Assembly: GCA_039589035.1 (NCBI GenBank)
Contig: JBDHIC010000018.1
Location: forward strand, 1-33,514
Direction: 5' to 3'
Length of the DNA: 33,514 nt
Origin: Gemmatimonadota bacterium
GTDB lineage: Bacteria > Gemmatimonadota > Gemmatimonadetes > JACCXV01 > JAHWKZ01
The notes below the pieces were generated by a model. The model made no database searches. It was not told the origin of the DNA and worked only from the letters and a program-made list of their open reading frames with translations. Each line of letters begins with the position of its first letter. The stretch's first letter is position 1. This document shows positions 1,477 to 26,361 of the stretch, piece by piece. The position numbers and the translations under genes are program-made.

Positions 1477-1486
1477 GACAACAGTC

Positions 1487-1954
1487 TCATTCTGGAGCCA
1501 TCCCCTTGGAGGCGAGTTCTTCGATAGCGGACGTTGACTTTTTCAACGACTGCAAGCCCATACCCTTCAGTACTGGGTGGGCCTTCGTGAACTGGATCTC
1601 GGCGTAGTCGACGATCTGAATGTGGTTGCCCCACGGATCGAGAAAATCGCGGCCCGAGGGCGACAAGATGTCAGCGCCGGCTTGTCGTGCCGCGCGCACG
1701 ACCTTTTTGATGTCATCCACGACCAGACCGAAGTGTCGATGGGTGTCGGGGGCCTGAGATCGGCCCTCGCTCAGAGCGATGAACTGATCACCTAAGTCGA
1801 TGAACGCCATGCTCTTTCCACGACTTCGAAGACGCAGGTCGAACAACTGGCCGTAAAACTCCAGTGCCGCGTCGATGTCCCCGACTTCCAACGCGACGTG
1901 GTTCACGCCTACGGCTCGGGCCGGCTGGGTACCCCGATCAGTCGAAATGGCCAT
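1487..1954 (-). CDS. VOC (glyoxalase/bleomycin resistance) family protein
   Basis: Motifs GVNHVALEVGDIDAALEFY, HFGLVVDD and FLDPWGNHIQIV. Start moved to the ATG at 1954 because the longer ORF extension overlaps the divergent gene. Confidence 0.85.
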   Translation of the reverse strand: MAISTDRGTQPARAVGVNHVALEVGDIDAALEFYGQLFDLRLRSRGKSMAFIDLGDQFIALSEGRSQAPDTHRHFGLVVDDIKKVVRAARQAGADILSPSGRDFLDPWGNHIQIVDYAEIQFTKAHPVLKGMGLQSLKKSTSAIEELASKGMAPE

Positions 1955-2055
1955 CGACGCGTACGATAGTATGCAGTTGGACAGAGCACCACCGTCGCGA
2001 GCGTCAAACCGGCCGTCCCGGCTCGGTGTTTTCATTAGGGGAACCAAGGACCGAT

Positions 2056-2904
2056 ATGAGAGTCTGCCTACGCCAGCGACGCTACACACTGATTGGGCTC
2101 CTGCTGGGAGTTGTTGCGCTCGTGTATCCGATCGGTCTAGCCTCCCAAACCCTGGCCCGTAGCAATGTTCGGCCGACCGCGATTCCACTGCTGGGGTTGG
2201 GTTCGCCGCCAGCGGCGTCCGCGGAACTCGACAGCCTGTTGCAAATCCTCGAGCGATTCGATGCGGATCGCGTCGACGAGTTGGTGGCGCGCTACGATCA
2301 ACGCGGCAACGCCGAGAAACGAAGCCTCGAACAGCGCTTTGGCGTGATCCAGCACCGGTTCCGAGTTGACGCCGACCCGCGAGGGATCTTTCAGCGCTGG
2401 GTAGCTGCGGGTTATGGGGAATCGATTCTCGTTGATGCGCTCAAAGAGATCACGCAGGGCCGTTATTCCGCGTACTATTTCTTCGATGGCGTCATTCGTC
2501 CCAACGTGTTTGCGTCCGACCGCTACTTGGCTCGTCAGGAGAGCGCCGTCCATGAAAAGGTCCACCTCATCCAGCCTGCGATCTACCGGCGTTTGAGCCT
2601 TCGCTGCCGGTGGACAAACCCGCTTGATAGTTGCGTCCGGAGCCTCGAACCGGTGGCTGTCTACTTAACTGAATACGCGGTGCTAGATCGACGTTCGCCG
2701 CACTTGCCCGACGGCAGCATCAACCGGGCGATTGAACGCTACCTGGTAAGGGAAGCCGAGCGCTGCCGGTACGCCACTGACACGCCACGTTGCCCCGCAC
2801 CGCATCGAATTCGTGAGTACATCGAGTTGCCGCTCGAGGTAGCCCGGCTGGTGGAACGGCACGGCCTCGAGGGCGGCATCGTGAGGTTCGTGAACCGCCT
2901 GTAA
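2056..2904 (+). CDS. Hypothetical exported or membrane-anchored protein with an HExxH (zincin-like) motif
   Basis: AAGGA RBS before ATG 2056; basic then hydrophobic N-terminus (RQRRYTLIGLLLGVVALVY); AVHEKVHLIQ at 2545-2574. Confidence 0.65.
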   Translation: MRVCLRQRRYTLIGLLLGVVALVYPIGLASQTLARSNVRPTAIPLLGLGSPPAASAELDSLLQILERFDADRVDELVARYDQRGNAEKRSLEQRFGVIQHRFRVDADPRGIFQRWVAAGYGESILVDALKEITQGRYSAYYFFDGVIRPNVFASDRYLARQESAVHEKVHLIQPAIYRRLSLRCRWTNPLDSCVRSLEPVAVYLTEYAVLDRRSPHLPDGSINRAIERYLVREAERCRYATDTPRCPAPHRIREYIELPLEVARLVERHGLEGGIVRFVNRL

Positions 2905-22979: not shown

Positions 22980-23237
22980 ATGGTCAAGACCAAAGCCCAA
23001 AAGCAAAAGCATCAATCCAAGGCCCGACCCAAGGGGCCCGCCCCGAAGGCCGCCCGGGCTGGGACGGGAGCGCCAGCGGTTGCATTCTCGCGTATCAACG
23101 CGATCTACTTGGGTGTCGGCGCCGTCGCGATCGGACTCGGGTTCTACCTCCTGGCGCAAGGCAGCATGGTGCTAGCGCCGATCCTGTTGGTCCTCGGCTA
23201 CTGCGTGCTTCTGCCGATCGGAATCATCAAGAAGTAG
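22980..23237 (+). CDS. Small two-TM membrane protein (DUF3098-like)
   Basis: Basic N-terminus, then FSRINAIYLGVGAVAIGLGFYLL and [19 protein letters not shown]. Confidence 0.7.
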   Translation: MVKTKAQKQKHQSKARPKGPAPKAARAGTGAPAVAFSRINAIYLGVGAVAIGLGFYLLAQGSMVLAPILLVLGYCVLLPIGIIKK

Positions 23238-24522
23238 TTCCCGTTAGATCTTCTAGCGGGCGCGGTATCGCGTCGGTCCCACGCGCAAAGATCCCCTCCC
23301 AGTCGATCTTTCCGGTCAGTTGCATGAGCATGAAGAGCGTCAGAACGGCTCCGATCGTGACCGTCAGGCCGGTGTACCCCTCGAAGAAGAAGGCGTAGCT
23401 GAACAGCACCAGGAAGACGAGCTGTGCGCCGCCAGCGTAGAACAGCGCCCGTCGCAACCCGCACACCAGTCGCAGATAGCTCACGACCAACGTGATCGAT
23501 ACGAAGGACGCCAACACGAACGCGATGTTGATGTCCAAATGATCGACCAGGTACGCCAAGAGCAGATGAAACGCGAAGAACCCCGCCGACAGGAAGAAGT
23601 AGTGCATAGGGTGGAGGTTGATGTGCCTGAGTGCGCCCAGCATGACCAGGACGGTGACAAAGAACAGCAACGAAACCGGCGCGAAGAACGTGATACGCGC
23701 GGTCAGCGGGCCGGGGTTCAACCGGTTCGGCAGGTCGACCCCGATGTGCTTGCCGCTCACCAGATTGTCAAACCGCCAGGCGAGCTTCCACCCCTGGTCG
23801 CGTTGCACCTTGGCGGTTGGTGACAGTGTGCCGGGCGGGAAATCGAAATCGCCGAAGTCGGTCGTCATCGTAAGCTCGAAATCCCGAACCGTCGAAACAC
23901 CGCCAACCGCGAAGTAGTAATTCCAGGTGTCCAAGCCGCGGGAGGTGTACCCGATCTCGACGTCAGCTTCTGCGCCCGGCTCCATCGCGGTCAGGATCCA
24001 GACGCCACGATCGAGCTGATCGGCGGGTGGCGCCTCTTGGCCGTTGACGCGGAACGAAAAGTCGTCGTATACCGAATCCGACGACGGAAACGTGAAGGCG
24101 ACCTTGACCGGTCCGGCGACGTCTTCGGACACCGTGAATCGGTAGCTGCCACGAAACTGGACGGTGTACGTGTCGTACCAGAGAAGGCCCTTGCGGCGAT
24201 GTTCGAGCGCCAGATCGGCTCTTACGCGACTGCGGACCAACGGGATCGAGATCGTTTCGCGGATCGTCTTTTCGACCTGGCGCTTTGTGACGCGTCCTTC
24301 CTCATCGGTTTCGATCACCTCCTCGGTCACCTGGCGCGGCAACTGATGCGAAACCGTGGGGGCGGCTTGGCGCTGAGCACCGCCCCAGAGCTGGGTCACA
24401 GCTTGCGAGAGCGCATAATCGGAGCTGCCGGTTCGGTGTACGACCGACGCGCCTAGCGCAAACCAGGCGAGGGCGGTGCAACCAAAGATGAATGCGACGG
24501 CGAACAAACGGCGAACGGTCAA
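23227..24522 (-). CDS. CreD-family inner membrane protein
   Basis: N-terminal [20 protein letters not shown], a large soluble domain, then about six TMs including [26 protein letters not shown] and [23 protein letters not shown] and TTGA coupling to uppS. Confidence 0.8.
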
Positions 24523-25289
24523 CGGGTACCTCCTTGAGTCGCGTGAAGTGGCCTATGGGTTTGGTTATCGGTGGCTGCATTTGGCAATGCGCCAAACCGG
24601 CGCTCGCGAGCCTGGAAATCACCAACCGCCCCTTCCAAATCGGAACGCTGGAAGTCAGGCCACAGCACCGGCGTGAAGTGGAGCTCGGCGTAGGCGCACT
24701 CCCAGAGCAGGAAATCACTCAGCCGTTGCTCACCGCTGGTCCGAATCAGCAGGTCGACCGCGGGGACATCGGGAACCGAGTTGCTGGCAACCAGAAGCTC
24801 GCGCTCGAAATCGCGCTGCTGCGCATGACCGGCGGTCGGGAAGTGACGCACCGCCTCAGCGATCGCCCACCGGGACGAGTAATCGATCGCTATCCGTAGG
24901 AGCAGTCGAGAGCCTGTGGCGGTGGCTTTCTCGGCTCGCTTGATCGCGCGGAGAAGCTTGGGCTCGAGCCGATCGCGACGCCCGATGACGTTTAATCGGA
25001 CGCCATTCGCGCGAAAACGGTTGATCTCAGCGTCCAGATGACGCTCGAAGAGCTTCATCAGCGTTCGGACTTCTTCCGCCGGCCGGCGCCAGTTGTCGGC
25101 CGAAAAGGCATACAGCGTAAGGGTCCCGATGCCGAGCGACGGGGCAGATTCGACGACCCGCCGCACTGTGTCGACCCCGGCTAGATGTCCCGAGGTGCGG
25201 CCCAAGCCACGGCGCGCGGCCCAGCGGCCGTTACCATCCATGATCAGCGCGACGTGCAGTGCGGCAGGGTCATGCCAAGTACTTGGCAT
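24519..25289 (-). CDS. uppS: Cis-prenyltransferase (undecaprenyl/decaprenyl diphosphate synthase), probably a second copy
   Basis: Motifs [47 protein letters not shown] and RRFG. ATG 25289 is preferred over TTG 25307. Confidence 0.93.
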
Positions 25290-25297
25290 CACAAAGT
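25272..25297. promoter_or_regulatory. Palindrome and putative operator overlapping the uppS start
   Basis: Perfect 18-bp palindrome ATGCCAAGTACTTGGCAT (25272-25289). The overlapping 17-mer ACTTGGCATCACAAAGT (25281-25297) matches the promoter site at 26339-26355 at 14 of 17 positions. Confidence 0.7.
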
Positions 25298-25312
25298 TAA
25301 CAGACAAAAAAA

Positions 25313-25678
25313 CTACTCCTCTCGCATGGCGTGAATCAGCGTCTCCATATGATCGAGGTACCGCTCGAGAGCTCGGCGGCCTTTGGCGGTCAGTTGATAG
25401 ACCGTCCGTGGGACCCGTGCTTCGAACCGTTTACGGCAAGACACGTAGCCGGCATCCTCGAGCTTGCGCGCGTGAACGCTCAAGTTTCCGTCGCTGGTCT
25501 CCAACAGATCTCGAAGCTCGGTAAAGGACAATGACGGATTGACCGCCAGCGCGCTCAGGATTCCGAGACGTACGCGCTCGTAGACTAGCCGATCGAACTC
25601 GCCGGCCTTGGGATCCGCGAGATAGCCGGCGATGCCGCGCAATGTCTGTTGCTTGCGGCTTGCCTTCTTGTTTGCCAT
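25313..25678 (-). CDS. Winged helix-turn-helix transcriptional regulator (HTH_34-like)
   Basis: Motifs [45 protein letters not shown] and [15 protein letters not shown]. Confidence 0.9.
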
Positions 25679-25685
25679 CGCCCGC

Positions 25686-26300
25686 TTAGCCCCCATAACG
25701 CCTCACGATCAACGCACCAAAGACGAGGTGCAAGCCACCGAAACCGATCGCCAGCAGCGGGTTCGCCCAACTGGCTGGTGCTGCCAATGCGATGAGACCC
25801 AAGACCATGAACGCGGCACCCATGATCGGCACCGATCGGACCGAGAACATGCCGCCGGTAACCACGCCAACACCGTATAGCAGCAACCATAACCCGGGAA
25901 TCGGGTCCACGATTTCAGCCCGATAGAGTGCGGCGGTCAGCGCGATGGCGGCGATCACCGGTGGCGCAAGTCCGAGAAGGAAGCGTCGACCGACACCACG
26001 CGACAACCGTTCACCCTGGTGCCTGGCCTTCTGGTGCATGAAAACGCCCCCGATCGTCGCCGCCAGTAGCGCATCCAGAACCCAGAGCGGGAGCCACTGG
26101 TCGGCGAGACCGGGGGAAGAGACGAGTGCGGCCGTTGCCAGAGCCGAGACACCCATTACGATCCCACCCCAACCGGGCACAGAGGTGAAAGCGCGCGACG
26201 ATTCCATCGTCTCGCGGATGTACTCGAGGTTGTCGATCGCCCTCGTGTGGAGGGCGACCGGCTCATTGGGCTCAGACCGCAGAGGCTCGGATGCCGACAT
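25686..26300 (-). CDS. Multi-pass membrane protein (about six TMs), partner of the wHTH regulator
   Basis: N-terminal helix ALHTRAIDNLEYIRETME, WLLLYG and C-terminal GFGGLHLVFG. The ATG at 26300 lies 7 nt after a -10 box. Confidence 0.82.
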   Translation of the reverse strand: MSASEPLRSEPNEPVALHTRAIDNLEYIRETMESSRAFTSVPGWGGIVMGVSALATAALVSSPGLADQWLPLWVLDALLAATIGGVFMHQKARHQGERLSRGVGRRFLLGLAPPVIAAIALTAALYRAEIVDPIPGLWLLLYGVGVVTGGMFSVRSVPIMGAAFMVLGLIALAAPASWANPLLAIGFGGLHLVFGALIVRRYGG

Positions 26301-26361
26301 GACCAGTAGCCTACCAGAATAATACTTTATTGTCAAGAACTTGATGATGCAAAGTGACTTT
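26301..26361 (-). promoter_or_regulatory. Sigma70 promoter (probably leaderless) with ACTT/AAGT operator repeats
   Basis: Minus strand: TTGACA (26336-26331), 17-nt spacer, TAGGCT (26313-26308), 7 nt, ATG, with no RBS. ACTTTGCATCATCAAGT (26355-26339) and further AAAGT/ACTTT half-sites flank the -35 box. Confidence 0.78.

Follow-up and report, generated by a model that had tools for sequence, protein, structure and literature searches.

A putative second copy of a promoter operator in the early codons of an accessory uppS gene from Gemmatimonadota

Auxiliary operators located inside coding sequence are known from Escherichia coli, where lacO2 lies in lacZ and galOI in galE. Regulators bound within transcribed DNA can act as roadblocks, with PurR at purB and the sites of CcpA or CodY within reading frames as examples. 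In Bacillus subtilis, the ArsR-type autorepressor SdpR is controlled by the polytopic membrane protein SdpI. Here we describe a four-gene operon that invites comparison with these systems. It was found in a stretch of 33,514 nucleotides from a Gemmatimonadota bacterium (the whole stretch is called the window), and it carries one sequence motif twice, beside the operon promoter (O1) and in the early codons of its third gene, uppS (O2).

As in the case of lacO2 and galOI, a second copy of the promoter operator is present downstream in a structural gene, and the same DNA encodes protein and, as predicted here, binds the repressor. The locus differs from both in that the copy sits some 1 kb from the first, at the edge of the third gene, where it overlaps the translation start, with a run of T residues as a partner 8 nt upstream, and in that the regulator is an uncharacterised HTH_34 protein. 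The likeness to SdpR/SdpI consists of a small winged-helix regulator gene beside the gene for a multi-pass membrane protein, both in an operon under its own control (self-regulation being predicted for the window), whereas the gene order and the protein families differ, and the regulator of the uppS operon scores below the ArsR/SmtB cut-off. In the LacI/Mfd roadblock, a repressor in a transcribed region stops RNA polymerase and lowers the expression of only the downstream genes, as the position of O2 would predict for the uppS operon; with LacI, downstream expression fell to about 13%, and Mfd removed the polymerases stalled at the roadblock (PMC6593788). The conserved T-run of the uppS system has no counterpart in the LacI, PurR, CcpA or CodY roadblocks.

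The closest relative of the regulator with a solved structure is PH1061 of Pyrococcus horikoshii (PDB 1ub9; E value of 2.3e-7 over residues 33-116), whose record describes a hypothetical protein and names no DNA site or function. Literature searches on HTH_34 (PF13601), on DUF4153 (PF13687), on uppS with CreD and on an operator or repressor of uppS revealed no publication on the regulator family or on the operon. Operators in coding DNA and roadblocks are kinds of element already known. What is new here is the regulator family, the target (a second UppS together with CreD or DUF4153), the fixed T-run partner, the placement of the site over a translation start across several phyla, and a clear codon signature.

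All four genes of the operon are located on the minus strand of the window (Table 1). The second product matches HTH_34 above the gathering score over the entire profile (positions 1-80 of 80), and its reading frame stays open up to an ATG at 25696. Two other assignments of this regulator were rejected, as an ArsR/SmtB metalloregulator (29.5 bits with NCBIfam NF033788, below the cut-off of 55) and as a member of the PadR family (26.3 bits with PF03551, below the cut-off of 27). Pfam HTH_5 gave 32.6 bits (cut-off 22), in the helix-turn-helix part only. The UppS protein likewise covers its whole profile (PF01255, 256.4 bits, positions 1-219 of 219), and scored 250.6 bits with TIGR00055 (cut-off 109.55) and 338 bits with NF011412 (against 334). 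The start of the creD-like gene overlaps the uppS stop by 4 nt; the best PF06123 stretch of its product is only C-terminal (profile positions 277-428 of 428), and its NCBIfam CreD score of 65.8 bits is below the cut-off of 275. Complex prediction for the membrane protein and the regulator (alignments A2 and A1) yielded a score of 0.09 against a mark of 0.32, which speaks neither for nor against binding.

Table 1. Positions of the genes and sequence features of the uppS operon in the window.
Feature	Position	Strand	Remarks
O1, promoter-side operator (putative) ACTTTGCATCATCAAGTTCT	26336..26355	-	21.4 bits, second-best in the host genome
Operon promoter	26308..26336	-	-35 TTGACA 26336..26331; 17-nt spacer; -10 TAGGCT 26313..26308
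Gene 1, polytopic membrane protein, 204 aa	25686..26300	-	no Pfam family above cut-off
Gene 2, winged-helix regulator (wHTH), 121 aa	25313..25678	-	Pfam HTH_34 (PF13601) 96.7 bits, cut-off 27
GAGGAG before the probable TTG start	25321..25316	-	invariant in same-genus relatives
T7 run	25306..25312	-	directly after the wHTH stop codon; ends 8 nt ahead of O2
O2, internal operator copy (putative) ACTTTGTGATGCCAAGTACT	25278..25297	-	best genome-wide matrix score; recurs at the same position elsewhere
Gene 3, uppS paralogue (cis-prenyltransferase)	24519..25307	-	PF01255 and TIGR00055
Gene 4, CreD-like inner membrane protein	23227..24522	-	PF06123 64.1 bits, cut-off 23

The host genome (G000) amounts to 2.30 Mb in 294 contigs, with a G+C content of 62%. 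Its other uppS gene (287 bits) is found on contig C226 (locus L036, positions 1486-2211, minus strand) in the usual frr-uppS-cdsA-dxr context, which rules out the window gene as the housekeeping copy and makes it an accessory paralogue.

On the promoter side, the last base of O1 is the first T of the -35 box, and 2 nt separate the 17-mer from TTGACA. Only 7 nt lie between the -10 box and the ATG of the first gene, a short gap which suggests that the operon mRNA is leaderless at this gene. The same geometry recurs in other genomes: among 98 O1 sites, TTGACA comes next in 58 and TAnnnT is found at 16-18 nt in 67, and 48 of the 67 loci with such a -10 box have ATG or GTG 6-7 nt downstream (loci L001-L117). 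A consensus promoter scan did not call the operon promoter, because its -10 box matches the consensus at only three of six positions, and the assignment rests on conservation. Being a conserved palindrome beside the promoter of the regulator's own operon, O1 qualifies as a putative operator. In two relatives (L002 and L006), an apparent tRNA gene is located on the opposite strand about 60-170 nt upstream of O1. The window sequence upstream of O1 differs from that in these two loci, which implies that the left border of the operon was rearranged within the genus.

The resemblance between the two sites was first noticed as a match at 14 of 17 positions between the start of uppS and the neighbourhood of the -35 box, and the count is correct: the plus-strand 17-mer at 25281-25297 agrees with the reverse complement of 26339-26355 at 14/17. 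When both strands of the host genome were scanned, no other position matched the promoter 17-mer at 14 or more of the 17 bases. The pattern ACTT-N9-AAGT occurs three times in this genome, two of them being the O1 and O2 sites. When the two 60-nt regions were shuffled and compared in every register and in both orientations, 14 matches were reached in 24 of 5000 trials.

A pattern search of 61 genomes that allowed two mismatches was as noisy as its control, only matches with no or one mismatch being informative, and a weight matrix was used instead. It spans 20 nt and was built from 27 O1 sites of other genomes, with the window excluded; its consensus is ACTTTGTAATGCAAAGTACT. In a scan of the whole host genome with this matrix, O2 came first with 29.6 bits and O1 second with 21.4 bits, the third-best position scoring 15.0 bits. 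The site at the start of uppS therefore ranks first genome-wide by a matrix derived from other genomes, and its description as a true second copy of the promoter-side motif is upheld. O1 and O2 are copies of one asymmetric 20-nt site of consensus ACTTTG-N5-CAAAGTACT; in O2, it takes the form of a 17-nt quasi-palindrome, ACTTTG-N5-CAAGT, followed by a conserved ACT. O2 begins 16 nt past the regulator stop codon and about 1.06 kb downstream of O1, and it covers uppS codons 4-10 when these are numbered from the TTG start discussed below. By the asymmetric motif, both sites have the same polarity. Aligned in this polarity they are identical at 11 of 17 positions, all within the conserved arms, while three of the 14 matches counted in the opposite orientation fall in the variable spacer, so that the opposite-orientation likeness would be partly a coincidence of non-conserved spacer bases.

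Within the genus (L001-L006), the spacers of O1 and O2 are nearly identical, with six to seven of the seven central bases shared in five of six genomes, and in L002 the 17-mers of the two sites are exact reverse complements of each other. The likeness of the spacers within the genus hints at copying between both sites. Spacers within one genome resembled each other only slightly more than spacers across genomes, the observed value being reached by 68 of 10000 permutations, and by 494 of 10000 when the five congeners were left out. An identical 20-mer, ACTCTCGGCTCCAAAGGACT, which matches the pattern weakly, was observed at positions 4574-4593 of contig C122 of the host genome and on several contigs of G001, G003, G004 and G006; it probably belongs to a repeated element or to a conserved RNA gene.

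The first-pass annotation had centred on an 18-bp palindrome, described as the first six codons of uppS and as beginning at its start codon. The palindrome, ATGCCAAGTACTTGGCAT, is indeed exact (25272-25289), and reads ATG CCA AGT ACT TGG CAT in the uppS frame on the minus strand. By itself, however, it is not unusual in the host genome, which contains 37 perfect palindromes of at least 18 bp in 2.30 Mb, or about 0.5 expected per 33.5-kb window. Nor does it appear to be the functional unit, as the five congeners keep a palindromic stretch of only 10-14 bp and the 18-bp perfection is particular to the host genome. The palindrome is composed of the right half-site of O2 and the mirror image of this half-site, ACTTGGCAT, and it is perfect because CCAAGT of the half-site happens to precede its mirror ACTTGG. 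The ACTTGG that follows the O2 half-site copies, in this genus, the O1/-35 junction AGTACTTGACA. We regard the palindrome as a by-product, the feature that matters being the putative 17-20-nt site. Its placement at the start codon was not confirmed either, since TTA or ACG stands in place of ATG 25289 in 5/5 same-genus relatives, whereas the TTG at 25307, 18 nt upstream of that ATG, is invariant in the genus, as is the GAGGAG 8 nt ahead of it. The uppS start is thus probably TTG 25307, with ATG 25289 as codon 7, and the palindrome most likely spans codons 7-12.

We examined how widely this arrangement is distributed. The regulator was found in 45 of 61 related genomes, and 30 loci were returned. 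All 30 have the membrane protein gene ahead of the regulator, with only part of this gene present in L015 and L029, and ACTTTG-N5-CAAAGT-AC-TTGACA is present upstream of it in 28; in the remaining two, the promoter region falls outside the locus. uppS directly follows the regulator in 17 of the 30 loci, and 14 of these 17 have O2 between the regulator stop and uppS. O2 was also observed in two of the 13 loci that have no uppS. A scan of named genome records with the regulator alignment gave 80 loci of metagenome-assembled genomes (MAGs) from Gemmatimonadota, Acidobacteriota (Bryobacterales, Terriglobia and Blastocatellia), Thermoanaerobaculia, Gammaproteobacteria and others. Here the membrane protein gene lies upstream in 79 and O1 is present in 70 of the 80, and uppS lies downstream in 65, of which 36 have O2 at 18 bits or more; among the 15 loci without uppS, three have O2. 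In these named MAG loci of about 5 kb, no further plus-strand site of at least 18 bits was found beyond O1 and O2. Conservation of the putative operators O1 and O2 across phyla is confined to these two positions of the loci.

When both sets of loci were pooled, O2 was present in 50 of 82 uppS loci. The 29 named-MAG uppS loci below the threshold consist of six with weaker O2-like sites (11.8-17.3 bits) and 23 whose best score is about 0 or less. The best scores are accordingly bimodal, with 56 loci at 11.8 bits or more and 23 of the 65 named-MAG loci at about 0 or less, a grouping that leaves out three uppS loci of the relatives that score below 16 bits. O2 is missing from 26 of the 82 uppS loci even when the sub-threshold sites are counted, and it is therefore not essential to the operon. 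Because the loci are related and the two sets partly overlap (the sequence of L107 is that of L007), these counts measure breadth and overstate independence. None of the conclusions depends on the unpublished genomes G016, G019 and G056.

The set of effector genes is modular. In L031 (1205-), L032 (1628-3484), L033 and L035, the gene after the regulator encodes a large DUF4153 (PF13687) membrane protein and not uppS, and in many uppS loci a DUF4153 or creD gene lies downstream of uppS. Additional sites of 27-30 bits were observed elsewhere in the larger genomes of the class (L118, L119, L121 and L123, from G060, G057 and G051), located before genes for small predicted membrane proteins or before a DUF4153 gene, and some of them are followed by TTGACA as O1 is. 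These extra strong sites suggest that the predicted regulon is wider in G060, G057 and G051.

The proposal that this stretch is dual-coding DNA gained support from the reading frame and from codon usage. O2 keeps to the frame of uppS in 48 of 50 loci, and a check of conservation at synonymous positions revealed that rare codons are enriched at the site relative to the gene bodies. At site positions 12-20, Gln is encoded by CAA 32 times and by CAG four times, although CAA makes up 25% of Gln codons in the same gene bodies. The bias is sharper for Ser (AGT 36, AGC 8; AGT is 4.3% of Ser codons in the gene bodies) and Thr (ACT 32, ACA 2; ACT is 8.9% of Thr codons). The retention of the rare A/T-ending codons CAA, AGT and ACT at O2 indicates that selection acts on the DNA and not on the peptide. 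Consistently, 23 uppS loci are without any O2-like site, which implies that the N-terminal peptide is dispensable for UppS. The prediction that homologous UppS proteins begin with M-x-S-T-(L/W)-H was roughly right: CAAAGTACT dictates (Q/P)-S-T, and S-T-L-H results where the site lies directly against the LHVA motif. Another genus includes two genomes in which the module of T-run and site overlaps the start of a DUF4153 membrane protein gene, and the products begin with MPSS or MTSS. With its motif, its reading frame and the selection at synonymous positions, O2 emerges as a putative internal operator in coding DNA.

In the window, the last two T residues of the T-run and the next G form the TTG at 25307..25305. 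A run of at least five T residues is present within 30 nt upstream of O2 at 50 of 55 sites; the gap between run and O2 is exactly 8 nt in 38 of these 50, and the base after the run is G in 38. No T-run of six or more was found in the 23 uppS loci without an O2-like site, and no comparable run precedes O1. Runs of T7 or longer number only 44 in the host genome when both strands are counted, and many of them are clear terminators. In the window, the hairpin before the run is weak (-4.8 kcal/mol) and a terminator scan called none at the run, while across the loci a rough terminator criterion picked out 13 of 50 T-runs. A canonical intrinsic terminator was rejected for this genus on account of the weak hairpin. 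Inspection by eye revealed no acceptable -10 box for a sigma-70 promoter at the T-run or O2 on either strand, and the -33/-7 spacing of Bacteroidetes-type promoters does not fit. Candidate roles for the run are a U-tract that aids the release of polymerase stalled at O2, a ribosome-loading tract, or both.

We consider an internal operator that gates read-through into uppS-creD to be the best explanation of these observations, and hold it with moderate confidence. According to this model, the regulator, encoded between O1 and O2, would bind both sites as a dimer. At O1 it would hinder RNA polymerase at the -35 box and so repress its own operon, and at O2 it would block those polymerases that the leaky, self-regulated promoter had let through. 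The membrane protein, as a presumed sensor, and the regulator would be made at a basal level, and uppS-creD would remain silent until release of the regulator. Looping between O1 and O2 may contribute. The centre of O1 lies near -46, and the regulator could therefore be an activator instead. The position of the T-run fits the stalling of polymerase at a roadblock only loosely; given how far from a bound protein polymerases stall, one halted at O2 would hold few U residues in its RNA-DNA hybrid.

A more specific version, which we put forward as a doubtful possibility, is that T-run and O2 together make a repressor-gated terminator, in which a U-tract without a hairpin terminates transcription only when the HTH_34 protein is bound 8 nt downstream. 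If this were true, the operon would be split into an always-on part for sensor and regulator and a tightly closed part for the effectors, namely a second UppS together with CreD or DUF4153. Such a module would be portable between genes and common to several phyla, and its operator, lying in the first codons, would dictate the N-terminal peptide (F-x-x-Q-S-T) of whichever gene comes next.

The alternative that survives best, though we consider it rather unlikely, is that O2 is an auxiliary operator which works only by looping to O1, so that the whole operon is repressed equally and uppS-creD has no separate control. In many genomes, both sites do carry the motif with one polarity, at a spacing of about 1.0-1.1 kb, and the near-identity of the O1 and O2 spacers in the genus would suit a pair of sites that act together. 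However, the distance between O1 and O2 varies from about 990 to 1100 bp without evident phasing, and O2 keeps its place with respect to the T-run and to the beginning of the gene that follows, not with respect to O1.

It is improbable that O2 acts in the mRNA, with the U-run as an S1-type ribosome-loading tract, a short hairpin of ACUUU...AAAGU at the start codon that tunes uppS translation, and only a secondary likeness to O1. Such a role would agree with the start codons around the site: TTG (36) or ATG (4) stands exactly 10 nt ahead of it, where the T-run ends, in 40 of 55 loci, and an in-frame ATG occurs within O2 in 31 of 50. It would agree as well with the scarcity of Shine-Dalgarno-like motifs, which were found at only 17 of 55 sites (11% for random 13-mers). 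Yet O1 carries the same sequence upstream of the -35 box, where it is not transcribed from that promoter. Moreover, the arms show no compensatory changes, position 6 being often A against an unchanged C12, as in ACTTTATG...CAAAG, and the conserved ACT tail belongs to no stem.

An internal promoter at O2 is unlikely, and in our estimate very much so; in this reading, the upstream transcript would stop at the T-run, and uppS would be activated by the regulator from O2 as the operon would be from O1. The 13 T-runs of 50 that come after a terminator-like hairpin, the many T-runs of the host genome that are clear terminators, and the TTGGCA that follows O2 in this genus, resembling the -35 box after O1, can be cited in its favour. 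On the other hand, the window has no TAnnnT at 16-18 nt after O2, and the hairpin is weak in its genus. O2 lies anywhere between about 0 and more than 40 nt from the conserved catalytic motif HVAIIMDGN, in contrast to the fixed geometry of O1, -35 box, -10 box and ATG, and a transcript from O2 would be without the uppS start codon. Finally, the idea that the site has no regulatory function, its likeness to O1 stemming from a conserved N-terminal peptide of a UppS subfamily or from chance, can appeal to the commonness of 18-bp palindromes and is largely refuted by the genome-wide first rank of O2 with an independent matrix, the rare codons fixed at synonymous positions and the 23 uppS loci that are devoid of the site, with the site also standing ahead of a different gene (DUF4153), so that we give it hardly any credence.

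The internal operator that we favour is predictable from sequence alone, which opens the way to direct and cheap experiments. The locus also provides a natural example of overlapping codes, in which three codons are fixed at choices that are rare in the G+C-rich genomes concerned. Undecaprenyl phosphate is the limiting lipid carrier for the cell wall and for envelope polymers, and to our knowledge the way in which bacteria adjust its supply is poorly understood. Conserved from Gemmatimonadota to Acidobacteria and also in some MAGs of Gammaproteobacteria, a second uppS under a dedicated, membrane-linked regulator would constitute an envelope-stress circuit so far undescribed, in phyla that do not lend themselves readily to study.
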